A stretch of 23,822 nucleotides of DNA. It comes from a virus. Its lineage: Duplodnaviria > Heunggongvirae > Uroviricota > Caudoviricetes. Under the pieces are notes generated by a model that was not told the DNA's origin, made no database searches, and saw nothing but the letters and a program-made list of their open reading frames with translations. How positions within the stretch are numbered: position 1 is the first letter of the stretch; every line of letters starts with the position of its first letter. Made by a program: the position numbers and the translations under genes. The DNA lies in the IMG/VR virus record IMGVR_UViG_2671180283_000029, positions 1-23,822 of that record. One strand, written 5' to 3'. Positions 1,491 to 17,590 of this stretch are shown one piece after another.

Positions 1491-1520
1491 GCCCTAATCA
1501 TGAGTTAGGGCGTTTTCTTT
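1491..1520 (+). terminator. intrinsic terminator-like hairpin in leader
   Basis: GCCCTAA / TTAGGGC 7-bp stem, 7-nt loop, followed by GTTTTCTTT. Confidence 0.4.
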
Positions 1521-1581
1521 AAGAGTTTTAAGCAGAGCTTTTAAAGAAAGTTTTTCCTGAAACTTCGTTAACGTAACCTCC

Positions 1582-1617
1582 AAAGCCCTTCACAGATTAT
1601 GTTTAGGGCTTTTCTTA
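1582..1617 (+). terminator. second hairpin with T-rich tail in leader (terminator or attenuator)
   Basis: AAAGCCCT / AGGGCTTT 8-bp stem with 15-nt loop followed by TCTT; weaker than the first hairpin. Confidence 0.3.
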
Positions 1618-1711
1618 ATAGAGCATCTTTAATCAATCGTTAAGTCATCTTCTAAGTGTATTGGCGTTGAAGGTGCTCTATTAAGAAATAACCACTTAGA
1701 GGAAAATTATA

Positions 1712-2422: not shown

Positions 2423-2445
2423 CTATGAATTAAAAGAGGTGATTA

Positions 2446-2655
2446 ATGTTTGAAGAACGTTTAGAGACTATTCGGTCTGTTTGTGAAAACTTAAAGTTAC
2501 AAGCCAATCCAGCCTTAAGAATTAAAAACAAACGTCAAGTTATCACCTCACACAAACCAAAAACACGCAAGATTCCAAAGTGGTGTATCGACCGTATCCC
2601 TTCTGATGCCCAAATCATAGGTGAAACGGAATTACATTATCTTGTCAGACATTAA
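2446..2655 (+). CDS. hypothetical basic protein (69 aa)
   Basis: ORF with AGAGGTG SD 4 nt upstream of the ATG. Confidence 0.4.
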   Translation: MFEERLETIRSVCENLKLQANPALRIKNKRQVITSHKPKTRKIPKWCIDRIPSDAQIIGETELHYLVRH

Positions 2656-2733
2656 AAAAGAATTGGTTGGGTAAAAATCTACGGGAGAGATTATCGAGTG
2701 ACATCGGTAGTTTCTCCCTTTTTTGTATATGTG

Positions 2734-2797
2734 CTACGTGAAATCTGTAAAGCTAATACCCACACTGAATAATAGAATTTACGTAGCTCACGCTTAA
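2734..2797. repeat. conserved 64-bp intergenic element, copy A (CTACGTGAA-N11-TAATACCCACAC-N15-ACGTAGCTCACGCTTAA)
   Basis: Three conserved blocks with identical 11- and 15-nt spacings, matched by copy B at 4979-5042; lies directly upstream of the 2816 gene. Confidence 0.6.
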
Positions 2798-2815
2798 AGA
2801 GGTGAAATATGAACA

Positions 2816-4966
2816 ATGGCACAGTTTAAAGTTGATGATTTTCTGATTGAGTTAAGTTTTAACTCTCAGAAAGTTTTAAAAGGCTTGGAAAAAGCCGAGA
2901 AACAAACGATGCAAATCGCATCAAGAATTGAGAAACGACTAAATAAGGCATTCAGAGTTAACCCTACGCCTTTAAATGATTCTCTCAAACTAATGGAAAA
3001 GAATGTCGATAAAACTGTTTCCAAGATTGAGCAGCGTCTTAAAAACACTAGAGCGTTTAAGATTAAAACGGAAATTGATGACACTTTAAAGCCACTTAGA
3101 CAACCAAGACAGCCACGAATTAGCGGCAACAGAGCAATCACAGCGGCTTACTCAGCTAATATGTCTAAGCTAAAAGGCTTTGACCCTATTTTGCAGAAAT
3201 ACATCAAATCTCAGTTTTACGGGCTATCTGCTAAAGCTGGGTCAATGGATTCTTCAAAATTCAATGAGAAGCTGACTCAGTTAAATGCTTCAGTCAGAGA
3301 AGCAATTGCTAAAGCTAAAGGTCATACATCCACCAGCATTAACAATACAAGCGACGCATTTAATAATCTTGCAAGCAATGCAATCAAGTTATCTGGTGCA
3401 TTTTACTCTGTGATGGGTGCTCTTAACGCTTACAAGGCCATCATGAATGCAGGTCTTAAACGAGATTCCGCACAGAGAGCCGCTAAGTTTGTACTTGGTG
3501 ATAAAGCATCTGAGGCTGAAACATTTATCAGGGGACTGGCTGACAAGACAGGTCTTAATATCTCTGAAGGGCTATCAAGCTACGCTAAGTTTGCAGCAGG
3601 TGCTCAGGGTTCTATGTCACAGGAACAGACACAGGAGCTATTTGGTAATGCAACGGCTATGAGTCGCTTAATGGGGCTTTCTAACGATGAGCTAAACGGC
3701 ATTTTGAAAGCATTTGAGCAGATGGCTTCTAAGGGCAAGATTCAGGCTGAAGAGCTTCGTGGGCAGTTAGGTGACCGTATGGCAGGGGCATTTAAGCTAT
3801 TCGCTGAAGCATTGGGTATGACTGCTACAGAGCTTGATAAAGCGATGAAAGACGGGAAGATTTTAAGTAGTGATACTCTCCCTAAAGTCGCTAAACAGAT
3901 GGGCTTGATGATTGATAAAGCGGGTGGCTGGGCTGAAGTCGCTAAGAGCACTCAGACAGCTTTAGGGAAACTGGCTAACAACTGGGATGATACGATGGTG
4001 AAAATCTTCTCAGGTTCACAGGATGAGTTAAACGGCTTCTTATCCAGCATGAGTAGCTTGCTTAGTGAAATGGGTATGAGTTCTTCTATCGCTGGTGATG
4101 CTATCGGTGGACTTATCGACATGCTTAAAGCTGGTGTAGATGACATCCGTATCTTTAACAATCACCTTGAAGGCTGGATTCTACAGATTAAGAAGACCTA
4201 TTACAGCCTTGATGACACTAAACGAAAACTACTTGATGAAGTCGGTGATGGTTTTATCAATTTTGTCAAAGGTCTTGCTATAGCGTTATCTGCAAAGACG
4301 CTATTCAGTGCTACTACAGGGGTTATGAACCTGACAAGAGCAATCACAACGTTAGGTACAAGAGCTAATCAGGTGGCTGGTCAGGTAGCTACTGGTAAAG
4401 GTGTAGCTGGTGGTGTAGGTAGTGCTCTTGCAATTGGTTATGCTGATGACGGTTATGAAACAGCGTTAGCATTAGCTTCAATGATTCCACAAATCAGAGG
4501 CGTCACTCTTGGTTTATATGCATTGAAGAAAGCACTGGATTTTATGAATCAGGAAGTAGTCAAAAACGCTAATATGCATCCATCTGGGGTAGGTGTGGGT
4601 AGTGACTTTAATCCTGTGTATTCTGGTGACCCTAATAAACCGAATATGATTAACGAAGGATGGGGTAGAATTTTTAGTTCAATGGGTGAATTGTTTAACA
4701 ATGCCACAATGAATATTGCAAGATTCAATCATCCAGAATTAATTACCATGAAACAAGATGCATCATTAACGAGCACTGACATCCAAAATCTAAGAGATGA
4801 AATTAGTGCTTTAAGTAAGCGTATTCAGGAGCCTGTGAAAGTTTCACTTGGTGGTGAAGTTGCCATTAAACCAGATGAAACCAGCTTTATGACCTTTAGC
4901 AGTAATATCTACGACCAATATGCAGAAGCTACGTTATTAAGTTCATCATTCCCAGAAGATGATTGA
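2816..4966 (+). CDS. phage tail tape-measure-like protein (716 aa)
   Basis: Motif GKIQAEELRGQLGDRMAGAFKLFAEALGMTATELDKAMKDGKILSSDTLPKVAKQMG resembles the conserved tape-measure domain; helical N-terminus and Gly/Ala-rich hydrophobic segments (about residues 480-560), typical of TMPs. Confidence 0.7.
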   Translation: MAQFKVDDFLIELSFNSQKVLKGLEKAEKQTMQIASRIEKRLNKAFRVNPTPLNDSLKLMEKNVDKTVSKIEQRLKNTRAFKIKTEIDDTLKPLRQPRQPRISGNRAITAAYSANMSKLKGFDPILQKYIKSQFYGLSAKAGSMDSSKFNEKLTQLNASVREAIAKAKGHTSTSINNTSDAFNNLASNAIKLSGAFYSVMGALNAYKAIMNAGLKRDSAQRAAKFVLGDKASEAETFIRGLADKTGLNISEGLSSYAKFAAGAQGSMSQEQTQELFGNATAMSRLMGLSNDELNGILKAFEQMASKGKIQAEELRGQLGDRMAGAFKLFAEALGMTATELDKAMKDGKILSSDTLPKVAKQMGLMIDKAGGWAEVAKSTQTALGKLANNWDDTMVKIFSGSQDELNGFLSSMSSLLSEMGMSSSIAGDAIGGLIDMLKAGVDDIRIFNNHLEGWILQIKKTYYSLDDTKRKLLDEVGDGFINFVKGLAIALSAKTLFSATTGVMNLTRAITTLGTRANQVAGQVATGKGVAGGVGSALAIGYADDGYETALALASMIPQIRGVTLGLYALKKALDFMNQEVVKNANMHPSGVGVGSDFNPVYSGDPNKPNMINEGWGRIFSSMGELFNNATMNIARFNHPELITMKQDASLTSTDIQNLRDEISALSKRIQEPVKVSLGGEVAIKPDETSFMTFSSNIYDQYAEATLLSSSFPEDD

Positions 4967-4978
4967 TTTAACGGTGTT

Positions 4979-5042
4979 CTACGTGAATAAAGCAAAGTTA
5001 ATACCCACACCAAAAATTATTTTTCACGTAGCTCACGCTTAA
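4979..5042. repeat. conserved 64-bp intergenic element, copy B
   Basis: Same three blocks and same spacings as copy A; lies between the TMP-like gene stop and the 5123 gene. Confidence 0.6.
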
Positions 5043-5122
5043 CAGAGAAAATACATACATATCAAAGGTTTGGTTAAAAATGATTAAAATACACTAAGCC
5101 TTTGAAATCAAAGGAGAATTTA

Positions 5123-5911
5123 ATGATTTACTCTAATCAGATTCGTTACAGTGGCAAAGATGGCATCTATTTCCACTTAAGAGATAATGTAGATGCCTTC
5201 TTAACCTTATCAGCAACTGAGAACATGGAATTTGATAGCCCTATGCAGGTGACTACACAGAATATGCAATCGGGGCAAACCGTCACAGATAATGTGCAAA
5301 GAGCACCCAGAACAATCACTATTAGTGGTGTCGTTGTAGTTGGCTATGAAGGGAGCTTATTATTAACTCGTCAGGGTCAATTAGTAGAAAACTTCATCGA
5401 CACTCTGGAAAACTGGCGTGACCAGAAGCAAATTATTTCGGTCATCTGTAAAGATGGAATTAAAATTGATGATTCCATTATTACGAGTTTTAAAGCCTCT
5501 AAAGATGTTGGAATTTCAAATGGTCTAAGAATCCAGCTAACTTTTCAGGAAATTAACTTTAAAGCGATTGTAGGACAAACTGATATTTCAGCAGCAACTG
5601 GAAAGACCGCTACTACAAATGACGGTGGTGTGACCAGTAAGAAGAATGCAGGTAACGTGACCACTGAACGCAATAACGCGCCTATGCTATCGTGCAAAGA
5701 ATTAATGAATATTAGCGATGTATCCGGTTACGCTCCAGCTATCAGAAATGATATTCTCGATGCTCAGATTAAATGTAATAAGGCTTGGAAGCTGGACTAT
5801 TCAGACTTAACAGAAGCTGAAAAAACCAACGTCACCAATGCTAACAGTAACGCTGGTCGGGTAGCTTCAAAGCTTAAAAAGTACTCAGTGAATCCTAACA
5901 AAAAATACTAA
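5123..5911 (+). CDS. hypothetical protein (262 aa); position after the TMP-like gene suggests a tail-associated role, unproven
   Basis: ATG at 5123 with AAGGAG SD (track start at 5102 lacks an SD); Thr/Asn/Gly-rich C-terminal half; 3' end overlaps the convergent recombinase gene by 4 nt. Confidence 0.5.
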
Positions 5912-7431
5912 ATCTCTACTACATCAACATCTATTAAACCCCTCTCAGTGACTTCAGAAAGCGACTGTATAGCCTCTGTAACGTCCTCTGAGGGGTTTTC
6001 TGTTATTGATAGGGTGATTGACTTACTATTGTGAAAAGTCACTTTACAGCGACGTTTAGCAGTATTTAAAACGACCTCTTTAACAGCACTTTTGATTATC
6101 AGTTGTGCTTCAATCCTTCCCGCCTTTGTAGTCAAGTCACAATCGGACAAACAACCCACATCAATAGATTTAAGGCGTTGTGTCTCCTTCTCGATATCAG
6201 CATCAACCTGTGATAGCTCACCTTTTAACTGTTTTAGTTTGCTGGTAATAGCTGACAAATCTTCAATTTCAAGTGATAGCTGTACCAGCTTTTCAATATT
6301 GCTTGAGATGTGTTCACGGTGTAGCCTCAACATATCTATGGTATTCGTCGTATCGCTATCAAATCGGTCAAGACGAGATAGCAGAGTAAGCAATGTACCA
6401 TCGGTTTGCTTACGTGAAAGTCCTTTAGCACTACAACGGTTTTCATTACGAAGAGGACAACGATAAATCCCGCTTCTTGTATCGCTAAAGCCTGTGATAA
6501 TCAGAGCATGACCACATTCAGAACAACGGATAACACCTTTGAAAAGATTCACAGCCATTGGCTTATCTGAAGCAGGTTTTCTACCGTAACGAGCATATGA
6601 TAGTTGCTGGACTTTGTAGAATGTTGTTTCATCTATAATTGCAGGATAATAATCAGCTATCTCTTCACAGCCTTTAGGTGTGAAGTAACCAATTACAGAG
6701 CGATTTTTCAGAAGGTCTTGTACTGAGGTTTGACCAAATGAACCCGCTTTATATTGGTTAAGCGTCTGGTGACCTTCATCATTAAGAGTCCTGACAATCT
6801 CCCAGATAGACTTACCCTCTAACCGTAGCTGAAAGCACCTCTTCACAGTTTCTACCTTCTCAGGTATCACAGAGAAGCTTTTACGGTCATCATTAAGCTT
6901 AAGCCATGCAGGACAACGTTTAGAAATCTTGATACCTTCAGAGATGAGTTCTTTTTTACGGTTCCATGCAGCTTGTATACGCTCAGACTTCCTCAAACTC
7001 TCCTCATGCGACCGCTGCATTATCAGAATGCTTTTAATCAGAGCTAACGGGTCTTTAAGAGATTCTCGTGTGTAATGTTCACCATCGGACAAGGTGACTA
7101 CATCTACACCAGAGCGAAGAATGTTTCGTAATAGCTCACTTGCTCGGTCTACGTTCTGGCGTGACAAACGGTCAAGAGATTCTATCAAGAGCGTATCACC
7201 AGCTTTAACAAGCCCTTTCTCGATAGCGGTTAAGAAGTCACCTAAGCCACCTTTCAAGTGCTTACCAGTGAATCCACTCACACCTAAATCACGGAAGGAT
7301 AAATCTTGGTCAAGGTAGTACTCAGGATGAGCCTTAAGCCAATCAGTGACCATCTTAGATTGTCGGCGTAATGAATCACCTCGGGATTGCTTCTCAGATG
7401 AAAACCTGATGTAAGAAATGGCACGTTTCAT
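5908..7431 (-). CDS. large serine recombinase (serine integrase), 507 aa
   Basis: N-terminal resolvase-type catalytic domain (YIRFSSEKQ with candidate nucleophilic Ser, [11 protein letters not shown]), then recombinase domain, Cys-rich zinc-ribbon-like segment (CSECGH...[11 protein letters not shown]) and C-terminal coiled coil; GAGGTG SD; sits at the element edge next to the junction. Confidence 0.9.
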
Positions 7432-7483
7432 TGTTCACCTCAAAACTGATGCCTAGATTGTATCGCTTTAGGTGGTGTATTTA

Positions 7484-7921
7484 AACGTGTCTAATAAAAA
7501 TCACCCGATTAACGCCGCGCTGATGTAAACCGCGATTAAGCGTTTGTTCCTCTTCCCCTTTGGCGAAAAACTGTGGATGGCGGACTTCCACACCATAATT
7601 AAATTCGCCAGGGAGAGAATCGAGAAAATGCCAAAGCGCAGGCAGCTCCCGTGGGCCGAATGTGGCAGGCAGTTGCAGCCAGTATTGCCCAATGCGCGGA
7701 GCCAACGGTGACATGCGGGTCAAAAATTCAGTCACTAAATCATCGCAATGTCGTAATGCTGCCTGATGCGAAATGGTCGCCGGAAACTTAAAACAGAAGC
7801 GGAAGTCATCTGTGGTCTGTTCACGCCAGCGCAGGACAACCTCGGGTTTCGGCAGGGCGTAAAGCGTGGTGTTGCCCTCCACGCAGTTAACATGACGGGT
7901 ATTAAGGATTAACTTACTGAT
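7484..7921 (-). pseudogene. yecE: internal fragment of a chromosomal DUF72-family gene (yecE-like), truncated at both ends
   Basis: Reading frame open from 7921 to 7484 with no credible start (track start is GTG); the protein matches my recollection of E. coli YecE across its central ~130 residues, with the C-terminal tail (IFIRHV) diverging near 7500 and the 5' end running into the integrase 3' end; GC visibly higher than the left element. Identity is from memory, not a search. Confidence 0.55.
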
Positions 7922-9222
7922 TTTAATAAGCCTCTGGTGTCACTTTGGTGACTATGGGGCATCATTGGGACATAATCTGTCAGCTTCTGATTCAGCATTG
8001 CGATCTGTTCTGCATTGCTGTCAGTCATCCATGCTCCGTATACATTGAATACCATCTGGGCACTTGCATGGCCCATCTGGCTGGCAATGAAGCTTGGGTT
8101 TGCTCCGGCAGATAATGACCAGCACGCATAAGTGTGTCGTGACTGGTATGCCTTTCGATGCCTGATCCCTGCACGCTTAATGGCTGTTTCCCATGAGTCA
8201 CCTACAGAATCGACTTTGTAGACAAAACCTACCTGTTCGCTTTTTCTAACCACTTGAGGGTTAAACACGAAAGTACATTCATGGTTCACTGAACGTCCAT
8301 ATTCACGTAGTTGCACCTTGATGTTGTACTGCTTACCCAGTCTTGTCATTTCAGCCTGATTTTTCAGGACACTGATAGCGGGCTGGATAAGGTGCACAAC
8401 CCTGTTTGTGCTTGCTTCAGTTTTCGGTAGAGTGAACTCACCAAGTTTCGTATAATTGCGCCTGATGGTAATTGTTCCTGCCTTCAGATCGATATCTTCC
8501 CAGGCCAGGGAGACCAGTTCACCGTGACGCATTCCTGTGTACACAGCCAATGACCACAGGTTTTTCGTCTGCTGATGTCGGCAAGCATCTATCAGGCGAA
8601 TAAATTCGTCACGAGTTAGCGGATCTGGCTCTGCCCTGGCTCTTTTAAGAGGCTTAATTCCCTGGAAGGGATTTGCTTCTAAGTAACCGTGATCTGCAGC
8701 AAACTGAAACATTCCAGCGATTGTCGTCATGTAATAATTTACAGTAACGACGCTCCGTCCTTTTGCTGCTGCTTTGTTTTTCGTTGAATTCTGATACCCG
8801 GTCAGCAAATCTTTCCTGATATACAGCAATTCCTCTTTGGTTACCGATGACACCAGTCTACTGCCTCCAATTTTCGGAACCATCGTTCTTGCAACGGATT
8901 CATAGCGATTGAATGCATTTGCAGAGATTTCCATTCGTTTCAGATCCAGCCACTTTTCTTCAAGTTTCTTCACCGTAATTTCTTTTTTACTTACCCCAAA
9001 AGCCTGAAGGTTGGGGGAGTCAGGGAACTGTGCAGCATAATCAAAGCTTCCTGTGCGGATGGCAAAACATACTGATGTCCGCAGTTCCCCGGCGATCTTC
9101 CTGTTCTTGGCAGTGTCAGGGACACCAAGATTTTCCCTGACACGTTTACCTTTAAAATTAAACCAGATGCGTAATGTGCCGCCGTGGTTTTCGACGCCTG
9201 TTGGATATTTGACTTTATCCAT
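7909..9222 (-). CDS. int: phage tyrosine integrase (437 aa)
   Basis: C-terminal catalytic region with Arg/His/Tyr pattern (GMRHGELVSL, SRHTYACW, MGHAS, VYGAW); GGAGG SD; adjacent to the chromosomal gene remnant and followed by an excisionase-like gene. Confidence 0.9.
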   Translation of the reverse strand: MDKVKYPTGVENHGGTLRIWFNFKGKRVRENLGVPDTAKNRKIAGELRTSVCFAIRTGSFDYAAQFPDSPNLQAFGVSKKEITVKKLEEKWLDLKRMEISANAFNRYESVARTMVPKIGGSRLVSSVTKEELLYIRKDLLTGYQNSTKNKAAAKGRSVVTVNYYMTTIAGMFQFAADHGYLEANPFQGIKPLKRARAEPDPLTRDEFIRLIDACRHQQTKNLWSLAVYTGMRHGELVSLAWEDIDLKAGTITIRRNYTKLGEFTLPKTEASTNRVVHLIQPAISVLKNQAEMTRLGKQYNIKVQLREYGRSVNHECTFVFNPQVVRKSEQVGFVYKVDSVGDSWETAIKRAGIRHRKAYQSRHTYACWSLSAGANPSFIASQMGHASAQMVFNVYGAWMTDSNAEQIAMLNQKLTDYVPMMPHSHQSDTRGLLKSVS

Positions 9223-9277
9223 CGATACCTCCAGACGCCCAAGAGCGATACGAGCTTACATATTTCATGATATTAAA

Positions 9278-9514
9278 TCACCTGGGTTGTTTGTTTTTCA
9301 TTGAGGCGACCCAGGCATCTATTGCTTTTCTGTTATACATACATTCACTGGAAGGCTTTGGATTACCGTCTGGTGATACGTGAATATACTCTCTTCCAAC
9401 CATCCAGCATTCTTTCCGGGCCCGAAGAATTGTGCCTGGTTTGAGCCCGGTAATTGCGATAAGAACGCTTTCACAAACCCATTCATTGGGAGTCAGTTGA
9501 ATCACATTGCCCAT
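9278..9514 (-). CDS. xis: excisionase-like protein (78 aa)
   Basis: Small protein immediately upstream of int on the same strand; WMVGREYIHV resembles the lambda Xis winged-helix region (DGREYLFH). Confidence 0.6.
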   Translation of the reverse strand: MGNVIQLTPNEWVCESVLIAITGLKPGTILRARKECWMVGREYIHVSPDGNPKPSSECMYNRKAIDAWVASMKNKQPR

Positions 9515-9522
9515 GCATTACC

Positions 9523-9669
9523 TCACACAACACTCAGCCCACGGCAGTGGTACCACACTTCAAACATTCGTTTCACAATTTCACGACAGTAGAAGACGTC
9601 AACATCTCGCGTCAGGTCATAGCGATTGCCGTAACGCTGGCGCACCCATAGCTCAAACGCTTTATTCAT
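9523..9669 (-). CDS. small hypothetical protein (48 aa, MNKAFELWVRQRYGNRYDLTRDVDVFYCREIVKRMFEVWYHCRGLSVV)
   Basis: ATG at 9669 with AAGGAAG SD; fills the gap between xis and the next gene; below the track size cutoff. Confidence 0.35.
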   Translation of the reverse strand: MNKAFELWVRQRYGNRYDLTRDVDVFYCREIVKRMFEVWYHCRGLSVV

Positions 9670-9672
9670 TCT

Positions 9673-9915
9673 TTACTTCCTTTTCATGGCCCGTAATTTT
9701 TTCAGATGAGCTTCCTGCTCTGTTTCTGCCAGAATTTGTCGGTATTCCTGGTGATCAATCCGTTCAAACAGTTCATTGAAATCGTTTATTTTTACTGACT
9801 GTGTTCGCCCATCCATTCTTCTGTACAACACAGTGTTGTTTATGCAGCGAACAATTTTTACCGGGTAACCGGCATTGTCGGTATACAGTTGTCCCTGATT
9901 AATCAAAGCGAACAT
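9673..9915 (-). CDS. hypothetical phage protein (80 aa)
   Basis: Internal ATG at 9915 preceded by AGGAG SD; the track's longer 121-aa version would overlap the upstream gene. Confidence 0.5.
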   Translation of the reverse strand: MFALINQGQLYTDNAGYPVKIVRCINNTVLYRRMDGRTQSVKINDFNELFERIDHQEYRQILAETEQEAHLKKLRAMKRK

Positions 9916-9946
9916 TTTTTCTCCTGCTCTCTGAATAGTGAGAACT

Positions 9947-10318
9947 TCAGAGCCGTATGTTTGTAGCGGGTTCAATACTGATAATTTCTGCTGAGATAAG
10001 CATCCCGGCAAGCCAGAGCTCTCCGGACAGATCTTCATCCTGGCATGTCAGTTCGCCAATATTAATGGTGGCCATGATATCTGTTTCCCCTGTACGCTCA
10101 TCCTCGACTTCTTCATAAGGCAGCGTTGCGTACAGGCTTTCAATAGCGCAACTGATAACATCGAGTCCGGTCAGGTTGCCACCGACAGTGACTTCGAATG
10201 TTTCGCGGTATTCCCATTGCCCGAAAGTTAATCGAACGGTTTGTTTCGCCATGCGTCCGCATGACGTCAGATTTGGGTCATAGTTCATTATTTGCGGTTG
10301 AGTATTATGAGTGTTCAT
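9947..10318 (-). CDS. hypothetical phage protein (123 aa), acidic
   Basis: ORF in the leftward early operon; no recognisable motif. Confidence 0.5.
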   Translation of the reverse strand: MNTHNTQPQIMNYDPNLTSCGRMAKQTVRLTFGQWEYRETFEVTVGGNLTGLDVISCAIESLYATLPYEEVEDERTGETDIMATINIGELTCQDEDLSGELWLAGMLISAEIISIEPATNIRL

Positions 10319-10359
10319 CTGCTTTTCCCTTAGCCCGACGGCCTGCCGGGCATATTAAG

Positions 10360-11187
10360 TTATTTAACCTGGATAAATGGTGTATTGGCACCGCTGGTCA
10401 TGTATTGCGGCAGCGTGCCATTCCATTTATTGATGGCTTCCAGCTCCATAACACCGGGGTTCTGACGCAGAGCTTCACCGCGTAAACGAATAGCATCGGC
10501 TTCAGCCTGGGCTTTTGTGCGAATCGCATCAGCCTGTCCGGCAGCTTCCGCGCGCAACATGTTGGCTTCCGCTTCGCGCTGTTTTACTTCCTGCTCGCGT
10601 TGCAGAGTTTTCTGGTTCGCCGTGACTTTGGCATTAATGCTGTCGATAACAGTAGGCGGGTACTCCGGCTTACCCACATATGAGAGGCTTATTACCTGAA
10701 TACCGATGGGCGTCATTTCTTCCTGAATGTCTTTAAGAGCTGCATCCAGCAGCTCAGACTTGCCGCCGTCGATAAATTTGTCGGTGGTCATTTTGCTGGC
10801 CAGTCGGTTGAGTGCGTCGGCTATCTTCTGGCGCAGGTCGGTGTCGGTAATGTCGTCCACGCCTTTGCGGTAGGTCTGAAAGACTGTGGTAACTTTGGAT
10901 GGATCAACCTTGTAGGCTACTCCGATGTGGTAACCAATGGTTGTTCCATCGCTCATCTGGAAACTGAATGGATCATCGTAGGTCTTCATCTGCTTAAAGG
11001 TCGGGAAGATATAAACTTCAGTGTTCCAGCCTGTCCAGTAGCGACCAACACCGACCACTTCACCGACGCCTTTGTCGTCGCCAAGTTTGTTGACTTTGAT
11101 GCCCACATTACCAGGCTCAACACGATCACAACCGACAAGGCCAATGGCAGGCAGAACAATGGCTAAAGAAAAAATAATTTTTTTCAT
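10360..11187 (-). CDS. SPFH/band-7 (prohibitin/stomatin-like) domain lipoprotein, 275 aa
   Basis: Signal peptide with lipobox LVGC (MKKIIFSLAIVLPAIGLVGC); band-7-like core; C-terminal Ala/Glu/Arg/Gln-rich coiled coil typical of SPFH oligomerisation tails; AAGGA SD; ATGA overlap with the upstream small gene. Confidence 0.75.
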   Translation of the reverse strand: MKKIIFSLAIVLPAIGLVGCDRVEPGNVGIKVNKLGDDKGVGEVVGVGRYWTGWNTEVYIFPTFKQMKTYDDPFSFQMSDGTTIGYHIGVAYKVDPSKVTTVFQTYRKGVDDITDTDLRQKIADALNRLASKMTTDKFIDGGKSELLDAALKDIQEEMTPIGIQVISLSYVGKPEYPPTVIDSINAKVTANQKTLQREQEVKQREAEANMLRAEAAGQADAIRTKAQAEADAIRLRGEALRQNPGVMELEAINKWNGTLPQYMTSGANTPFIQVK

Positions 11188-11372
11188 CTTTTATCCTTAG
11201 TGAAAGAAAGCCCCTTATAAATGGTATAAATGCATGGCGGGGTTAGAAACGTCAGTGCAAAGCCAGAAATCACCGCTACCGTATCCTTCATTGATATCAG
11301 AAACGGGACGAGCAATCCGTAAATACATGCGATAATTGCCAGTGATATAACTATTCTGAAATAAATATTCAT
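11184..11372 (-). CDS. small membrane protein (62 aa, two predicted TM helices) coupled to the SPFH lipoprotein
   Basis: Two hydrophobic stretches (IVISLAIIACIYGLLVPFLI and AVISGFALTFLTPPCIYTI); AGGAGG SD; its stop overlaps the lipoprotein ATG. Confidence 0.55.
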   Translation of the reverse strand: MNIYFRIVISLAIIACIYGLLVPFLISMKDTVAVISGFALTFLTPPCIYTIYKGLSFTKDKR

Positions 11373-11432
11373 GGTCCTCCTGCTGTATTCGGCTTGCCTT
11401 ATTTAATTGCGTCATGGTTAATTTCGTTTACG

Positions 11433-11825
11433 TCAGAATGGTTTTGTTGCCATCAGTTCGTAATATCCGGCGCTCCATGTGTCATATTTTCTGAACCATT
11501 TTTCTGTATACTGTTTCCTGGCGATGAGTCTGCGCAGTCGTCTGATTGTTCGCTGGTGTGCGCGGGTGTACTCTGTGGTTGATTCTCCACGTTTCCATAT
11601 CTCATTCCCGTTGAAGATAAAACGCTTGTCAGGATGGCGTTGTCGGAATCCTGAACGTTCAAAAGCGCGGGTGGTCATAAAGAATGCCAGGTAACGAATT
11701 GCCGTTTTTCGAGTGAGGCATTTTTTTGTTCTTCCGTGGCGTGTTACAAAAAATAACGGGCCGACGGGTGTATCATGTTTCTGTAATGCCTGGTCAATGG
11801 CGCTGGCGGTGCGGTTGTCGATCAT
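11433..11825 (-). CDS. hypothetical basic protein (130 aa)
   Basis: ORF in the coupled leftward operon; Arg/Lys-rich; start overlaps the upstream gene stop. Confidence 0.5.
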   Translation of the reverse strand: MIDNRTASAIDQALQKHDTPVGPLFFVTRHGRTKKCLTRKTAIRYLAFFMTTRAFERSGFRQRHPDKRFIFNGNEIWKRGESTTEYTRAHQRTIRRLRRLIARKQYTEKWFRKYDTWSAGYYELMATKPF

Positions 11826-12040
11826 TTCTTTATTTCTCCTGAATAACGTTCATGACTCATTACTTCCCAGTTCCGGCCGTCGTCTTTCGATAACAGCCGC
11901 CAGCGACGGTTAACCTTCAGACTGAGACATCCGTTGCGCTGTATCCGATGCGGGAATATACGTCGGCATCTGTACCGCCGCAGGACCAGCAACGCCTGCT
12001 GGTGGACCCACTCAGGAATTCGCGTTGCTGTTAATGTCAC
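11822..12040 (-). CDS. hypothetical protein (72 aa)
   Basis: GTG start at 12040 with AGGAGG SD 6 nt upstream; ATGA-type junction with the downstream gene. Confidence 0.4.
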   Translation of the reverse strand: MTLTATRIPEWVHQQALLVLRRYRCRRIFPHRIQRNGCLSLKVNRRWRLLSKDDGRNWEVMSHERYSGEIKK

Positions 12041-12227
12041 TGGTTTCCTCCTGAGCAGGTGCTGTTATCTGATACCCCGCTCTTTCTGCCAGCCATATGA
12101 ATGTATCCATGCTGGCAATCAGCTCTCCATCGCGGACTTTGCAGACATCTGTTACCTGGCCATTTTCAATTGTCATAACGATCTGCACTTTTTCGTGCAC
12201 AACAGATACAGGGGATAAATTAGCCAT
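12012..12227 (-). CDS. hypothetical protein (71 aa)
   Basis: ATG at 12227 with GGAGG SD; overlaps the stop of the upstream gene. Confidence 0.45.
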   Translation of the reverse strand: MANLSPVSVVHEKVQIVMTIENGQVTDVCKVRDGELIASMDTFIWLAERAGYQITAPAQEETSDINSNANS

Positions 12228-12586
12228 CAGTTAATTCCTCCGCTGATATATTTTTCTTTCGCGTAATCAATAACCTCTTGTAAAAGGTTGTCTATAATTA
12301 ACTTTCCGGTTTCAGCCTGGTATTCAGTATGTTGATTAATCCCGATGGCATTCTGGTATGCAGTTCGGAATTCTGTTTCACCCTCCACTCGACCCAATTC
12401 ACCACGGGTAATATCTTCAAAGCGCAACAGCAACTGGTTTATAAACTGTTCTGTTATTTCTATGGTCGTAATGTTCCCATTCAGAAGGTCAACAATAAGC
12501 AGTTCACCACCTGTTTTACGTTTTATTCGATGGAGTTCTGCAACAGCTATACGGCGACGATATGTATTAATGGATTCATGTGTCAT
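12227..12586 (-). CDS. hypothetical protein (119 aa)
   Basis: ORF in the coupled leftward operon. Confidence 0.5.
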   Translation of the reverse strand: MTHESINTYRRRIAVAELHRIKRKTGGELLIVDLLNGNITTIEITEQFINQLLLRFEDITRGELGRVEGETEFRTAYQNAIGINQHTEYQAETGKLIIDNLLQEVIDYAKEKYISGGIN

Positions 12587-12589
12587 TTG

Positions 12590-12703
12590 TTATTTCCCGT
12601 ATGCTTTACGCAGAAATAAGCAGGCAATATGCATGTAATTTTCACCGTATTGTGCAATAAGACAGGCGGTCTTGTGTGATGCCATATTCTTTATAAAAGT
12701 CAT
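12590..12703 (-). CDS. small hypothetical protein (37 aa, MTFIKNMASHKTACLIAQYGENYMHIACLFLRKAYGK)
   Basis: ATG at 12703 with perfect AGGAGG SD 7 nt upstream; ends 4 nt before the next gene's start; below the track cutoff. Confidence 0.3.
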   Translation of the reverse strand: MTFIKNMASHKTACLIAQYGENYMHIACLFLRKAYGK

Positions 12704-12781
12704 AATAAAGCCTCCTGTGGATTAAGATTGTAACAATCCCCGGCGATAAAACCGCAATAAACCTTCAGGGCATATTTGTTG

Positions 12782-13147
12782 TTATTGCGCTAATTCTTTT
12801 TCGGCAGCAGCTTTTGCATACTCACATGCAAAATTCAGAATTTCGCTGCCGAGTGTTTTCGTTTCGTGATTACTGGACATATGTAATACCTGTGTTGCAT
12901 GCAATAAATGATAAACATTTACCGCAAATGAATCAGGCTCCAGACAAATGCCTTCGTAATTATCTTGCTGTGAGGTTGTTTCTGTCATTGCTTCTGAAGT
13001 GCATGCGAGCCTGTTTTTGACAATTCTCTTTCCTCTAATCACTATATCGGCAACATCTATTGCCTTTACAACCTCCGGGAGAAGTTCCGGGTTTGTATAA
13101 TCAAAGTCATCAACATGGAGAACAGTTATGTTTTCGAACTTTTTCAT
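12782..13147 (-). CDS. hypothetical protein (121 aa); first gene of the leftward early operon (lambda N map position, not N-like)
   Basis: ORF preceded by a divergent intergenic region (13148-13326) containing inverted repeats; not arginine-rich like N. Confidence 0.5.
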   Translation of the reverse strand: MKKFENITVLHVDDFDYTNPELLPEVVKAIDVADIVIRGKRIVKNRLACTSEAMTETTSQQDNYEGICLEPDSFAVNVYHLLHATQVLHMSSNHETKTLGSEILNFACEYAKAAAEKELAQ

Positions 13148-13326
13148 GGCTTCCTCAGCTGACTTATATGTCCTGCTATATAGCGAGTCTCAGAAGTGTT
13201 TTCATATTGAGACTGTTTCCGCAATGATTGATAATCAGTTACCGGATGCTTATCCGTGTCCGGCGCACGACCACACGTAGCCGCGTGTTGGTCCCCATTT
13301 TCAATTCAGCTCTCAATGGAGGATAA

Positions 13327-13554
13327 ATGATTAACGCAGAGCAACTCGAAAAAGAGATTTCAGAACTCAAAAAAGAATTAATTTGGCACAAAGTTGCTAT
13401 CTCCGCATTAATTCGTCAGGTAGTTTCACCTGAAGATAAAGTAAAGTTTATGAAGCAGCTCTCATCTTCATCAAAGGAGTTTTTCACTGACGAGGTTCAT
13501 CCAGAGGCTGGATTTTGGATCCGTCAATTATTTTCGCAAGATAAGCGTAAATAG
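13327..13554 (+). CDS. hypothetical small coiled-coil protein (75 aa)
   Basis: ATG with GGAGG SD 5 nt upstream; converges on and overlaps the 3' end of the minus-strand 80-aa gene by 71 nt. Confidence 0.45.
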   Translation: MINAEQLEKEISELKKELIWHKVAISALIRQVVSPEDKVKFMKQLSSSSKEFFTDEVHPEAGFWIRQLFSQDKRK

Positions 13555-13726
13555 CGTCATCAATACTCGCGTCGCTCTTGAATTTAAGAGCGATGCTCTT
13601 TATATCCTCTGAAATTATTACCAGATCACCATATGTTATATTTTTATTATTGCGCGCAGTGCTTTTTTGTATGAAATCAAGCAATTCACCAATGAGACAA
13701 ATATGGTAAGCATTACAGTTTTTCAT
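13484..13726 (-). CDS. hypothetical protein (80 aa), gene B of the cI-adjacent module
   Basis: ATG at 13726 overlaps the TGA of the upstream HTH gene (ATGA junction); the track's longer version starts further upstream in the other gene. Confidence 0.5.
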   Translation of the reverse strand: MKNCNAYHICLIGELLDFIQKSTARNNKNITYGDLVIISEDIKSIALKFKSDASIDDAIYAYLAKIIDGSKIQPLDEPRQ

Positions 13727-14184
13727 GCGCAGATATCCTTTGCTGCCGTTTCGCCAGTTAACAGCCACATCGCATCGCAGCCAAGAATATTTGCCAGTGG
13801 GATAAGCATACTGATAGTTGGTTCATACTCTCCGCTCTCCCACTGGATGATAATTTCTTCATCGAGATCGAGCAGCCTGGCGAGTTCGGCGGTTGTTAAG
13901 CCGCAGGCTTCGCGTTGGGTGCGAAGGTTAACCAGCCAGCTTTCAGGGAAGGATTGTTTTTGTTGCGCAGGAGAAGCAGCAGATAGAGCATATTCATGGA
14001 TAAATTCCATTATCTCAATGCCCAGTTCCTTTGAGCGAGCACAATCCAGAAGATGGAATGTGCGTACAGCACTTAGCAAATTTGCAATATTTAATGCAAA
14101 GGAATCAAGTTCTAAGCCCTTAAGCGTAACACAGCCGCAGTTGATAAAATTAGTTGTTTCTGGAGTTGCTTTTAGTGTCTTCAT
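13723..14184 (-). CDS. XRE-family HTH protein with an unknown N-terminal domain (153 aa), gene A of the cI-adjacent module
   Basis: C-terminal LRTQREACGLTTAELARLLDLDEEIIIQWESGEYEPTISMLIPLANILGCDAMWLL is a classic XRE helix-turn-helix; ATG at 14184 with GGCGGA SD (track start at 14214 is TTG); N-terminal ~85 aa unrecognised. Confidence 0.6.
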   Translation of the reverse strand: MKTLKATPETTNFINCGCVTLKGLELDSFALNIANLLSAVRTFHLLDCARSKELGIEIMEFIHEYALSAASPAQQKQSFPESWLVNLRTQREACGLTTAELARLLDLDEEIIIQWESGEYEPTISMLIPLANILGCDAMWLLTGETAAKDICA

Positions 14185-14237
14185 ATATCCGCCAACAATT
14201 TTAAATTGAATCAAATCAAGTTATAATTGATGGTGCG

Positions 14238-14266
14238 ATATTATGTTTTGGGAAATAGCCTGTCAA
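14238..14266 (-). promoter_or_regulatory. near-consensus sigma70-type promoter for the gene A-B module
   Basis: On the minus strand TTGACA (rc of 14261-14266), 17-nt spacer, TAATAT (rc of 14238-14243); lies between the cI terminator and gene A. Confidence 0.45.
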
Positions 14267-14294
14267 GAAAAAATTGATATCGTATATTTCAGGC

Positions 14295-14318
14295 AGAAAA
14301 AAAACGGGCAAAGCCCGT
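14295..14318 (-). terminator. intrinsic terminator downstream of cI
   Basis: On the minus strand ACGGGC-TTT-GCCCGT stem-loop followed by T8. Confidence 0.55.
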
Positions 14319-14330
14319 TAAAATCAAAGA

Positions 14331-15026
14331 CTAACCAAATCTGTTTATGTTGAATGGTACTGATGAGATCACTTTAGACTGGATATAAAGCAGAGCTAAC
14401 CCCTCTTTTTCGATGCTCCATGGTTGATAATTGGGGTTATCAGATAACACCATGATTTTGCTTCCAATTTTTTGAAGCCTTTTCACGTAGCATTCTCCAT
14501 CAAAACAAAATGCATAAATACCATCGCCATCAAAATAAGTTACTGTCTTATCAAGAAAAAGAAGGTCGCCAGGTGAGATTGTGGGAGCCATACTGTCTCC
14601 TCTGGCGTTACCTATTTCTATATTTTTGAATGCCCGATTCCCAACAAGACGTCGGGCATATTCAGGATCAAGTTCTATTGAGCGCACTACATCTATCAAG
14701 TCACCACGGACATGAGTTCCATCACCGCAACTAAACTCAACATCAAGGACATTAAACACGACACTATCTGTTCTTGTCTGGTGTTTCTCTTGCGAGGAAA
14801 AGGTTGGTGAGGAGTCTTCACCTAAGAACCAGGATTGTGGATAACCGCTAATCTCTGATAAATGCGCGAGCTTATCACTCCGTGGAAATGTTTTTCCTGT
14901 TGTCCAGTACTGCACTGATTGCGCACTCACACCTAACTTGCGGGCCAGTTGAGCCTGAGTCCATCCTTTTGCTTTCAGCATCGCGGCTATTCGATTTTCC
15001 GTGTTTTTGACGTTCTTCATGACCAA
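14331..15026 (-). CDS. cI: CI-type prophage repressor (HTH_XRE plus S24 LexA-like peptidase), 231 aa
   Basis: N-terminal HTH (KGWTQAQLARKLGVSAQSVQYWTTGKTFP); C-terminal S24 signature with GDSM serine and VKRL lysine; divergent from the cro-like gene. Confidence 0.85.
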   Translation of the reverse strand: MVMKNVKNTENRIAAMLKAKGWTQAQLARKLGVSAQSVQYWTTGKTFPRSDKLAHLSEISGYPQSWFLGEDSSPTFSSQEKHQTRTDSVVFNVLDVEFSCGDGTHVRGDLIDVVRSIELDPEYARRLVGNRAFKNIEIGNARGDSMAPTISPGDLLFLDKTVTYFDGDGIYAFCFDGECYVKRLQKIGSKIMVLSDNPNYQPWSIEKEGLALLYIQSKVISSVPFNINRFG

Positions 15027-15153
15027 ATCCTGTGGGTTTCTTTACAAGGATAAATCTTTACTTGATTTTAGTGTATTCGATCCTTTTGCAACTTGCATGT
15101 TAATTTAAACTTGATGTATTCTTGATTTATAAAGTTAATATTGGTGCTTTGTT
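15027..15153. promoter_or_regulatory. cI/cro divergent promoter-operator region (pRM/pR equivalent)
   Basis: 127-bp AT-rich spacer between divergent cI and cro-like genes containing three copies of a CTTGAT-containing motif; exact operators not resolved. Confidence 0.45.
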
Positions 15154-16256: not shown

Positions 16257-16919
16257 ATGATCATTTCAAGACCAAATATTGATTCTGCAATTTCGGGACG
16301 TTACACTGTCTCCGCACCTTATAAAGCGGGTGCCGGGGGTCGCAGCCCGGAATTGTCAACGGCGATATATGACGCGCCAGCGTCTTTTTTATCGTCCGCG
16401 CTCACGCACGCCAGAATTATGGTGGGCTGGGCAGGGGAGCCGAAAGGCTCGCCGGTCTCCGTTGACGCCGGTACTGCGAACCCTGTTCAGTCTGCCACCA
16501 GTGAGTTTCGCAGCTCCGGTGGTGGAAGTTTTCCACAGTCAACGGAGGCTGCCATCATGGCTACTGTCCCAACTTCCCCATACCTGAAAATTGAAGTTGT
16601 CAACGGCAAGGCCGTTATTTTCTCCCTGCATGTTGCCTGCCACTTTAAGCGAATGCACCAGAACATCGTTGACAAAATCGAGTATCTGAACTGCTCACGC
16701 GAGTTTTTTACCCGCAATTTCATACCGGGTACTTATCACATCTACGGTGACTCCCTGCGTGGTTATTACATCACCCTTGATGGTCTGATGATGCTTCAGC
16801 TTGGGTTAAGTCTGCGCACAATGCGGTACTACGAGAGCTGTATTGAAGCATTCCATGAGGCTGAAACCGTCCAGGGTCACTCCGCGTTCCGTCGTAATCA
16901 ACGGGAGGTGCACCTATGA
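16257..16919 (+). CDS. Rha-domain protein with Gly/Ala/Pro/Ser-rich N-terminal extension, paralog 1 (220 aa)
   Basis: Segment KIEVVNGKAVIFSLHVACHFKRMHQNIVDKIE ... YYITLDGLMMLQLGLSLRTMRYYESCIEAFHEAE matches the Rha-domain pattern; ~90-aa low-complexity N-terminus; no SD before the 16257 ATG, so the start is uncertain. Confidence 0.55.
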   Translation: MIISRPNIDSAISGRYTVSAPYKAGAGGRSPELSTAIYDAPASFLSSALTHARIMVGWAGEPKGSPVSVDAGTANPVQSATSEFRSSGGGSFPQSTEAAIMATVPTSPYLKIEVVNGKAVIFSLHVACHFKRMHQNIVDKIEYLNCSREFFTRNFIPGTYHIYGDSLRGYYITLDGLMMLQLGLSLRTMRYYESCIEAFHEAETVQGHSAFRRNQREVHL

Positions 16920-17590
16920 TCCGCCACCAGCTTATTGATTCTGCAATTTCGGGACGGTACACTGTCCAAGCACCTTATAAAGCGGGTGCCGGGATTGGCG
17001 TCCTGGAAATGTTATCGGCGATATATGACGCGCCAGCGTCTTTTTTATCGTCTGCGTCTGCGCACACCCAAATTATGGTGGGCTGGACGGGGGCACCGAA
17101 AGGTGCGCCGGTTTCCGATAACGCCGGTTACGCCAACCCCGTTCAGTTCACCACCAGCGAAATTGGCGTTTCCGGTGGTGAAGGTAATTCACTGTTATCG
17201 GAGGCTGCCATCATGGCTACAGTCCCAACTTCCCCATACCTCAAAATCGAAGTCGTCAACGGCAAGGCCGTTATTTTCTCTTTGCATGTTGCCTGTCATT
17301 TCAAGCGCATGCACCAGAACATCGTCGACAAAATCGAGTATCTGAACTGCTCGCGTGAATTCTTCTCCCGTAATTTCATTCCGGGTACTTACCACGTGTA
17401 TGGCGATTCCTTGCGTGGTTATTACATCACTCTTGATGGCCTGATGATGCTTCAGCTTGGGTTAAGTCTGCGCACAATGCGGTACTACGAGAGCTGCATT
17501 GAGGCATTCCATGAAGCTGAAACCAGCCTGAATCATACAGCTTTCCGCTGTAATCAATGGGAGGTGCGCCCATGATTCGCCGCCTCGTTA
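16277..17590. repeat. tandem direct duplication (~660 bp x 2) spanning the two Rha-like paralogs
   Basis: Copy 1 (from ~16277) and copy 2 (from ~16933) align colinearly with high identity, including the downstream SD-ATGA junction (GGGAGGTGCACCTATGA vs GGGAGGTGCGCCCATGA). Confidence 0.8.
16916..17575 (+). CDS. Rha-domain protein with low-complexity N-terminal extension, paralog 2 (219 aa)
   Basis: Same architecture as paralog 1; GGGAGG SD; ATGA overlap with paralog 1. Confidence 0.55.
   Translation: MIRHQLIDSAISGRYTVQAPYKAGAGIGVLEMLSAIYDAPASFLSSASAHTQIMVGWTGAPKGAPVSDNAGYANPVQFTTSEIGVSGGEGNSLLSEAAIMATVPTSPYLKIEVVNGKAVIFSLHVACHFKRMHQNIVDKIEYLNCSREFFSRNFIPGTYHVYGDSLRGYYITLDGLMMLQLGLSLRTMRYYESCIEAFHEAETSLNHTAFRCNQWEVRP

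Follow-up and report, generated by a model that had tools for sequence, protein, structure and literature searches.

A mosaic early-left operon in a probable phiP27-type lambdoid prophage of Escherichia coli

General features of the region

The window analysed here is a viral DNA sequence (Caudoviricetes) of 23,822 nucleotides (nt), positions 1 to 23,822 of IMG/VR record IMGVR_UViG_2671180283_000029. Twelve consecutive minus-strand genes are packed into positions 9278-13147, from the excisionase gene xis to a gene for a 121-amino-acid (aa) protein, as seen in the open reading frame (ORF) listing and by direct reading; the coordinates are collected in Table 1. The chromosome of E. coli Z1323HEC0393 (NZ_CP148357) carries this region with 100% identity, in a prophage beside yecE (DUF72). 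The element is probably (at roughly 80%) a phiP27-type, N-less, mosaic lambdoid prophage in yecE, and the region its cI-controlled early-left (pL) accessory operon.

Among characterised phages the closest is the Stx2e phage phiP27, with about 93% identity across 68% of the region and a shared gene order. At least 80% of the region is covered in 36 of 5426 complete E. coli genomes; coverage is partial in 920. In a protein-by-protein comparison, phiP27 and five E. coli relatives retain the genes for Int, Xis, the 48-aa protein, DUF4222, DUF5406, the SPFH protein and its transmembrane (TM) partner, the 37-aa protein and the 121-aa protein. They lack the 119-aa, ParE_like and 130-aa genes and carry another module in that place. 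Homology breakpoints coincide with gene boundaries, and the content of the operon is judged from these comparisons to be modular and exchangeable. This is an ordinary mosaic accessory operon; its sequence, its gene families and its N-less architecture are already public or published.

The twelve genes are closely spaced. Overlaps (4, 4, 29 and 1 nt) occur at four junctions, small gaps (3, 3 and 8 nt) at three and larger gaps (31, 41, 60 and 78 nt) at four; the 60-nt gap precedes the SPFH cassette and the 78-nt gap the 37-aa gene. The original prediction, made from the sequence alone, described about twelve genes joined by ATGA or short overlaps. This description fits about two thirds of the junctions and fails at the four gaps of 31-78 nt. 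It also placed the genes between xis and the immunity region; the operon does not adjoin cI, being separated from it by a helix-turn-helix (HTH) regulator gene, an 82-aa ORF and a plus-strand ORF.

The small genes had been left without assignment. Five or six of them belong to named families: DUF1233 (xis), DUF4222, DUF5406, SPFH/Band_7, ParE_like (PF24732) and the PHROG family 'membrane protein'. The 48-, 71-, 119-, 121- and 130-aa proteins each match over their full length a PHROG family without a named function. A PDB sequence search gave no meaningful match for the 72-, 71-, 130-, 119- or 121-aa proteins or for the DUF5406 protein. Over 9000-14400 there was no match from Rfam, run with a permissive threshold, or from Tandem Repeats Finder.

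The DUF4222 gene is one for which the start had to be decided. Its frame is open up to 10038 (121 aa) and would, taken whole, overlap the next gene by 92 nt. The PHROG and Pfam profiles cover only residues 42-121 of this long form, an AGGAG Shine-Dalgarno (SD) sequence lies 6 nt before the ATG at 9915, and RefSeq has the 80-aa form. On these grounds the 9673-10038 ORF is considered over-extended, with the true start at 9915 and the 92-nt overlap an artefact.

Table 1. Genes and control elements of the early-left region, in order of position in the window
Feature	Position	Strand	Basis and remarks
xis, excisionase, 78 aa	9278-9514	-	Pfam DUF1233 'putative excisionase' E 7.9e-33; phrog_539 E 4.6e-40; RefSeq 'excisionase family protein'
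48-aa gene, conserved phage protein	9523-9669	-	usually adjoins xis; phrog_3871 E 6.1e-33 over 48/48 of profile; RefSeq WP_032361717
DUF4222 protein, 80 aa	9673-9915	-	PF13973 E 2.9e-16; phrog_285
DUF5406 protein, 123 aa	9947-10318	-	PF17400 E 1.7e-22; phrog_3409 E 5.1e-53
SPFH/Band-7 lipoprotein, 275 aa	10360-11187	-	PF01145 E 2.9e-31; phrog_200 'lipoprotein' E 9e-115
62-aa membrane protein, two hydrophobic segments	11184-11372	-	phrog_1130 'membrane protein' E 3.6e-23; AGGAGG SD
130-aa conserved protein	11433-11825	-	phrog_1886 E 1.8e-59
ParE_like protein, 72 aa, reduced RelE/ParE toxin fold (predicted)	11822-12040	-	GTG start; PF24732 E 4.6e-17, 62 bits against a cutoff of 24
71-aa protein	12012-12227	-	phrog_340 E 2.1e-25; overlaps ParE_like start by 29 nt
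119-aa conserved protein	12227-12586	-	phrog_1737 E 2e-48
37-aa gene, conserved micro-protein	12590-12703	-	SD; codon-level conservation; stop 3 nt before ATG of next gene
Conserved motif ATCGCCGGGGAT	12736-12747	-	in the 78-nt spacer 12704-12781, 44 nt upstream of the 37-aa gene
121-aa protein	12782-13147	-	phrog_5451 E 7.6e-83 over 121/121; phrog_4587 on residues 57-121
75-aa ORF with its own SD	13327-13554	+	phrog_20080 E 4.9e-46; RefSeq WP_071791889; between HTH block and 121-aa gene
82-aa ORF	13484-13729	-	phrog_23054 E 3.4e-57 over 82/82; ATGA overlap with HTH gene; not in RefSeq
HTH_3 regulator, 153 aa	13723-14184	-	PF01381 E 1.3e-10; phrog_4836 'CII-like regulator' E 2.4e-76; RefSeq start 14184
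pL-like sigma-70 promoter	14238-14266	-	TTGACA-17-TAATAT, 10/12 consensus match; between cI terminator and HTH gene
Intrinsic terminator just after cI	14303-14319	-	AACGGGCTTTGCCCGTT then T run

Control of the left operon

The cI gene, which encodes an HTH and S24 peptidase protein, ends at 14331 and is followed by an intrinsic terminator. The pL-like promoter comes next, and the first gene after it is that of the HTH regulator, which occupies the position of N in lambda. ATCAAGT-type repeats are common to 14204-14231, just downstream of this promoter, and to the cI-cro spacer at 15050-15116; they are shared between the two sites as operators would be. A consensus scan predicted no other minus-strand intrinsic terminator from 13700 down to 9000.

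The transcription map is drawn from consensus scans. On cleavage of the repressor, RNA polymerase would start at the pL-like promoter near 14238 and transcribe the HTH regulator gene, the 82-aa ORF and the twelve genes to xis, and probably continue to int. Since no terminator is predicted between the pL-like promoter and xis, the left arm has no evident need for N, and an N-type antiterminator would not be required there. Translation of most of the genes would be coupled from one to the next, by ATGA, by short overlaps or across gaps of 3-8 nt.

Antitermination and the absence of N

The original prediction regarded the apparent lack of an N-like antiterminator as unusual in a lambdoid phage that carries Q. 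The lack itself is borne out: Pfam and PHROG give no N match for any ORF, and the first pL gene is an HTH_3 regulator. The trait is, however, already published for the phiP27 lineage; N, cIII and cII are reported to be absent from P27, and many lambdoid regulatory elements not to be identifiable there (Smith et al. 2012, PMC3430580).

A search for nut sites found one exact boxA 9-mer (CGCTCTTAA, 13584-13592, minus strand) and one boxB-like hairpin (12199), 1.4 kb apart. There is no boxA-boxB pair; both elements lie inside coding sequence and none was found after pR. These candidates were rejected as chance occurrences, being unlinked and within coding sequence. The boxA 9-mer also sits in a 28-nt near-perfect palindrome (13569-13596); this palindrome has the score of a terminator of the plus-strand ORF but lies within the 82-aa ORF. 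An Arg-rich N-terminus was seen in just two ORFs, both in alternate frames within the isrK/C4 RNA region of the right arm.

N proteins carry a disordered N-terminal arginine-rich motif (ARM). An N-like antiterminator might be present under another guise, for example as the 130-aa protein with its Arg-rich helix or as the HTH protein in the N position. N-like proteins evade searches by sequence (PMC11893012), a basic stretch of the 130-aa protein (AHQR..RRLRR) is invariant, and terminator-like hairpins precede Q in the right operon. This is very unlikely: the 130-aa protein is predicted to be folded (mean predicted local distance difference test, pLDDT, 81) and carries its basic stretch in a long C-terminal helix rather than in a disordered N-terminus, and its gene lies in the middle of the operon, not first. 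The scattered boxA and boxB-like elements and the lack of predicted terminators on the left arm count against it as well.

Some observations speak against the picture of an N-less, pL-driven operon. Firstly, the promoter and terminator scans found no more sites than they did in shuffled sequence. Secondly, between the HTH block and the 121-aa gene there is a plus-strand ORF with a promoter-like site and a hairpin; this ORF, together with the 60- and 78-nt gaps, leaves room for internal promoters or for expression in the lysogen. Thirdly, the right operon has several terminator-like hairpins before Q, linked to matches to isrK and C4, and antitermination or RNA-based control may operate on that arm. 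N-like proteins are, moreover, short, disordered and poorly conserved, so their absence from hidden Markov model (HMM) searches is not proof; it was functional work that showed Gp17 of mEp021 to be N-like (PMC11893012). Finally, the match of the ParE_like protein to the RelE/ParE fold, discussed below, is statistically weak (Foldseek E >= 0.12).

The ParE_like module

The ParE_like protein is predicted to have a reduced form of the fold of RelE/ParE-superfamily toxins, and RefSeq names a homologue 'ParE family toxin-like protein'. Its AlphaFold2 (AF2) model has a pLDDT of 91 and predicts a sheet of three to four strands, preceded by a single N-terminal helix and followed by a C-terminal one. 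The top Foldseek matches in the PDB are nearly all toxins of this superfamily (YafQ, YoeB, HP0894, GraT, HigB and RelK), at E values of 0.12 or more and TM scores of 0.37-0.60. In an alignment of 29 homologues R47, H62 and E63 are invariant and Y65 is nearly so. The depositors of two Serratia phages label the homologue 'HigB-like'.

The neighbourhood of the gene was compared in 31 loci from other species. In 18 of these, ParE_like is immediately preceded and overlapped by a member of the 71-aa family; 13 have none. The 71-aa family consists of two subtypes, which were joined by iterative HMM search. The 119-aa gene is upstream of ParE_like in 25 of the 31 loci and abuts it directly in five, all of them loci without the 71-aa family. 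The gene downstream is usually coupled by ATGA and is variable; it is most often the 130-aa gene, which follows with an ATGA overlap in the window and in at least 12 of the 31 loci. As a whole, the block 37-119-(71)-ParE_like-130 is a conserved syntenic core across many enterobacterial genera.

The 130-aa protein has 206 homologues, all unnamed and none with a Pfam domain. Its AF2 model shows an alpha/beta domain followed by a 40-residue basic C-terminal helix, and has no significant Foldseek match in the PDB or BFVD. The protein was also considered as a Gam, an N or a recombinase, none of which was recognisable by structure search in these two databases.

The ParE_like family occurs in 68 phage records, including the phages Sortsne, sortkaff and IME_EC2 of about 41 kb. 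Homologues with 37-42% identity are found in phages of about 41 kb that are seemingly not temperate (sortkaff, IME279, Sortsne, Lumpael, KMB41 and IME_EC2). The family is also carried by 34 plasmid records; these are overwhelmingly non-mobilizable, and many are 37-41 kb long without named neighbours. The records of 37-41 kb are read as putatively phage-like.

The gene arrangement invites comparison with a type II toxin-antitoxin (TA) system, in which the 71-aa and 72-aa genes would be a true addiction or abortive-infection module with the antitoxin upstream. The toxin side agrees: the Pfam match has an E value of 4.6e-17 and the top structural matches, weak as they are, are TA toxins. A small acidic-tailed gene overlaps ParE_like by 29 nt from upstream, as a family member does in the 18 loci, and in one phage record a homologue bears the annotation 'putative toxin antitoxin system protein'. 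The antitoxin side does not agree. The 71-aa family is not always adjacent, being missing from 13 of 31 loci, in five of which the 119-aa gene takes its place against ParE_like; conversely, it occurs without ParE_like in phiP27 and the five E. coli relatives. No DNA-binding domain was detected in the 71-aa protein. There is no promoter-like site before the 71/72-aa pair, which is not a bicistronic unit of its own but lies in mid-operon, coupled by a 1-nt overlap upstream and a 4-nt overlap downstream. The plasmid matches, overwhelmingly non-mobilizable and many of them of 37-41 kb and putatively phage-like, also count against it. A TA module is consequently considered unlikely.

Because its partners vary, and because ParE_like and the 71-aa family each occur without the other, the protein fits a phage early protein with a predicted toxin-like fold better than a self-contained addiction module. 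Its role would be that of a host-directed effector made at induction, rather than half of an addiction pair. A more specific proposal is tentative and of low probability: that ParE_like is a stripped-down RelE/YoeB- or ParE-type toxin, used as an early host-shutoff effector, restrained in the lysogen by repression of pL and not by an antitoxin of its own, with the 71-aa family or the 119-aa or 130-aa neighbours as optional modulators. If this were true, ParE_like would be an 'antitoxin-free' toxin domesticated for host takeover. The family is widespread in temperate phages and is found also in virulent-looking ones.

The 48-aa and 37-aa genes

Two small SD-led ORFs had been proposed as genes missed by the ORF track. 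Both do fall below the 60-aa cutoff of that track; the 48-aa protein is, however, already in RefSeq, and the 37-aa protein in GenBank and UniProt. Their standing as genes is upheld. The SDs are properly spaced, frame and length are conserved, the 37-aa ORF is under purifying selection and the 48-aa ORF matches a PHROG profile over its full length. By these signs both are judged to be genuine protein-coding genes.

The 48-aa ORF has an AAGGAAG SD 6 nt before its ATG (direct reading). A tblastn search found homologues with 69-79% identity in seven loci from other genera; in two of these the homologue immediately precedes xis. The gene is 96% identical in phiP27, though unannotated there.

The 37-aa ORF has an AGGAGG SD 7 nt before its ATG (direct reading). 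It exists as eight distinct DNA variants, with 37 codons in every one. Among diverged pairs the ratio of nonsynonymous to synonymous differences (pN/pS) is 0.15-0.32 (about 0.2), with pS up to 0.9, and the variable columns fall 12/5/22 on the three codon positions. The remaining frames contain stops in most variants.

Homologues of 32-44 aa, each with an SD, are present in 16 loci of other genera, including Trabulsiella, Raoultella, Citrobacter, Phytobacter, Pseudocitrobacter, Enterobacter, Kosakonia, Atlantibacter and others. Their consensus is M[TS]FIKDKxAY[KR]xAxL[YF]AxxGxxxIAxL[YF]L[RK]KAYGR. In all but one of these loci the ATG of the next gene lies close behind the stop of the ORF or overlaps it; this close spacing suggests that the 37-aa ORF also couples the translation of whichever gene comes next.

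Annotation of this gene is uneven. It is unannotated in seven RefSeq loci and in phiP27. GenBank and UniProt list the exact peptide under the label of hypothetical protein, with an Stx2a phage and O111 strain 11128 among its sources. Searches of Pfam and PHROG gave no match, and a search of 1.8 billion representatives found about six true family clusters. Residues 8-31 give weak, multi-stretch matches to ankyrin-repeat proteins (E 2.5e-6 to 5e-4); membership of the ankyrin family was rejected, and the matches are read as a generic resemblance to a helix-turn-helix hairpin.

The spacer upstream of the 37-aa gene holds the conserved motif ATCGCCGGGGAT. The window and three E. coli relatives share it without change, even with a different gene upstream. 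In four loci (Trabulsiella, Raoultella, Pseudocitrobacter and Citrobacter) the same place is taken by a related motif, GGGGAAT...CACAACC. No convincing sigma-70 promoter was seen in the motif region, and no consistent RNA pairing by eye.

With such a motif just upstream, no Pfam or PHROG family and no call by PGAP in seven loci, the 37-aa ORF might be taken for a chance ORF in a conserved leader or regulatory RNA. The substitution pattern makes this highly improbable, since third-position bias and a pN/pS near 0.2 at pS values reaching 0.9 are properties of coding sequence. The length varies by whole codons only, the SD is kept across genera, and the other five frames hold stops in most variants.

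The SPFH lipoprotein and its membrane partner

SPFH proteins are membrane-associated, and the member encoded here appears to be a lipoprotein. It begins with MKKIIFSLAIVLPAIGLVGCD, which reads from the translation as a signal peptide and an LVGC lipobox with Asp at +2. In E. coli, Asp at +2 of the lipobox leads to retention in the inner membrane (Lol sorting). The protein is consequently predicted to be anchored in the inner membrane with its SPFH domain in the periplasm. The protein is 87-98% identical in relatives and is present in the P2-like phage P88 and in P1-like records. Its best NCBIfam matches (HflC and HflK) are weak (E 3e-6), and the best solved relative by sequence is E. coli HflK (E 2e-4).

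The 62-aa membrane protein gene is coupled to the SPFH gene by an ATGA overlap, and in all six E. coli relatives examined it overlaps the SPFH start by 4 nt. The early operon of P88 has an analogous gene for a 67-aa membrane protein, which overlaps its SPFH gene by 4 nt; in P1-like records the SPFH gene stands alone, adjoining ban. The pair is taken to be a mobile two-gene membrane cassette of lambdoid, P2-like and P1-like phages. Most likely it would alter the envelope, either by excluding other phages or by modulating a membrane protease or another membrane complex. Within the literature searched there was no study testing a phage SPFH protein; the nearest concerned Pasteurella PM0222. Identity of the SPFH gene with P1 plp/upl was considered and not adopted; the reference P1 record is not among the matches.

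One possible role concerns the missing cIII: the SPFH protein and its TM partner might be a phage mimic of HflK/HflC that modulates FtsH and replaces cIII in the decision between lysis and lysogeny. The closest NCBIfam and PDB relatives are HflC and HflK, the predicted inner-membrane anchor and periplasmic SPFH domain reproduce the topology of HflK/C, and the cassette lies within the pL operon of a lineage without cIII. The similarity is nevertheless confined to the generic SPFH and coiled-coil part (E 3e-6 and 2e-4), the cassette is also found in P2-like and P1-like phages, which use no CII/FtsH switch, and a cII orthologue was not identified in P27. This role is thought improbable.

A GC-rich hairpin, GCCCGGCAGGCCGTCGGGC, lies directly after the SPFH stop at 10325-10345 (minus strand) and has no U tract. 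It may mark a cassette boundary or stabilise the RNA.

The HTH regulator, its paralogue and the ORFs between them

The 121-aa gene has a GAGGAAG SD before 13147 and no obvious SD before 12988; RefSeq calls only 12782-12988. The C-terminal 68 aa of the protein form a conserved unit, to which the adjacent HTH regulator has a paralogous N-terminal domain: residues 69-115 are 47% identical to residues 34-80 of the regulator over 47 aa (BLASTP, E 6e-11). A paralogue without the DNA-binding domain could act as a modulator of the regulator.

The 82-aa ORF is probably the second gene of the pL transcript. The plus-strand 75-aa ORF converges with it (71-nt overlap); a promoter-like site lies at 13207-13235 and a terminator-like hairpin after the ORF at 13569-13596. 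In phiP27 the 82-aa ORF is intact and the plus-strand ORF is frameshifted near codon 17.

Recombination and defence functions

Scans of the region's genes with Pfam, PHROGs, NCBIfam and PADLOC found no Exo, Bet, Gam, Kil, cIII or N, and with Pfam, PHROGs and NCBIfam no YqaJ/Exo, RecT/Bet/Erf or Gam family was found in the region or in the right operon; nor did the window's other phage genes include a recombinase. PhiP27 shares the lack of the Red genes and of N. The right operon contains cro/YdaS, Rha, two ash-type genes, a DnaC-like ATPase, DnaB, DUF968 and Q. The original prediction was thus right that none of Exo, Bet, Gam, Kil, cIII and N can be recognised here; HMM searches assigned no gene of the left operon to a standard recombination or antitermination family.

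In lambda-like phages, the region between xis and the immunity genes holds defence-type functions. The operon had accordingly been put forward as a pool of candidate defence or anti-defence factors. PADLOC-DB 2.0 gave zero matches at E <= 0.01 for the ten proteins scanned; NCBIfam and Pfam gave no defence domain, the only NCBIfam result being the weak HflK/C similarity of the SPFH protein. The suggestion did not gain from these scans and remains a positional prior only.

It is rather unlikely that the operon is chiefly a store of such genes, with one or more products that exclude superinfecting phages or block host immunity. Its position, the exchange of modules at gene boundaries between relatives (as in known hotspots), the moron-like SPFH and TM cassette common to lambdoid, P2-like and P1-like phages, and the presence of a RelE/ParE-fold protein are all compatible with this. 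Apart from the negative database scans, a further objection is that 37-119-(71)-ParE_like-130 is a conserved syntenic core and not a variable cargo slot.

Other features of the window

On the plus strand at 16257-17575 there are two tandem ORFs of the 'ash family'. Each has a match to the isrK small RNA and to the C4 antisense RNA in its 5' half and a Rha-like domain in its 3' half. The RNA matches lie at 16314-16390, 16415-16502, 16970-17046 and 17071-17158, and for both isrK and C4 the match exceeds the Rfam gathering score. At 16371 and 17027 there are short terminators (GACGCGCCAGCGTC, then T6). The segment looks like a duplicated RNA-controlled antirepressor unit of the P1 immI type (c4/ant) or the Gifsy isrK type, and RNA genes read as protein may account for the 'Ash' N-terminal domains.

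Downstream of int, the yecE (DUF72) gene is reduced to a fragment of 133 aa (7481-7882). Adjoining it is a second mobile element of low GC content (37-40%), which encodes a large serine recombinase of 507 aa (5908-7431) and has other large ORFs as well. The presence of this second element beside the cut yecE (1-7882) indicates two elements in tandem at the yecE locus.

Value of the analysis

The discovery value of the region is low. There is modest practical value in annotation, in triage and in two experimental leads, the ParE_like mini-protein and the SPFH and TM cassette. For annotation, a cross-genus 37-aa gene absent from RefSeq and from the phiP27 annotation is gained, and probably likewise the 82-aa gene; one ORF proves to be over-extended in simple ORF tracks and in the phiP27 annotation. 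For triage, a defence-island label finds no support.

Comparison with known systems

PhiP27 (NC_003356 / AJ298298, L01-L11) has the same order of int, xis, DUF4222 (L03), DUF5406 (L04) and SPFH (L05), and further on of the 121-aa gene (L08), the plus-strand ORF (L09), the HTH regulator (L10) and a cI-like gene (L11). Protein identity is 95-99% for Int, Xis, the 48-aa, DUF4222, DUF5406, SPFH and 121-aa proteins, and phiP27 is likewise without N, cIII and cII. It differs in that L06 and L07 replace the 119-aa, 71-aa, ParE_like and 130-aa genes of the window; its 37-aa gene is only 70% identical, and its cI is of another immunity type. The phiP27 annotation leaves out the 48-, 62-, 37- and 82-aa genes.

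The SPFH protein shares with HflK/HflC and with the SPFH proteins of SPFH-NfeD operons the Band_7/SPFH domain, a C-terminal coiled coil and membrane anchoring. It differs from both in its lipobox anchor, which stands in place of a TM helix, and in being phage-borne. As in SPFH-NfeD operons, a small membrane protein gene is coupled immediately upstream of the SPFH gene; coupling of NfeD genes to bacterial SPFH genes is described in work cited in PMC9872710. The 62-aa two-TM protein has no Pfam match, NfeD included. Another prophage-borne SPFH protein resembling HflK/C is PM0222 of Pasteurella multocida, reported to be a secreted virulence factor that activates TLR1/2 (PMC9872710); no homology or functional link between PM0222 and the SPFH protein of the window is established.

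ParE_like resembles the RelE/ParE toxins (YafQ, YoeB, HigB, RelE and ParE) in its Pfam domain, predicted fold and top structural matches. Its invariant Arg and C-terminal His-Glu-x-Tyr would be reminiscent of RelE/YoeB active sites. In contrast to these toxins, it is only 72 aa long, its structural matches are weak, it has neither an obligate antitoxin nor a promoter of its own, and it is embedded in a phage early operon and found also in virulent-looking phages.

The pL operon of lambda (N, cIII, kil, gam, bet, exo, xis, int) differs from the present one in its gene content, since no homologues of N/nut, Red, cIII or kil are found here; the first gene here is instead an HTH regulator, and there are no predicted left-arm terminators to override. 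In other respects the two correspond. Both are leftward, repressor-controlled early operons that end in xis and int and carry many small coupled accessory genes, and toxic functions are tolerated in both because the operon is silent in the lysogen.

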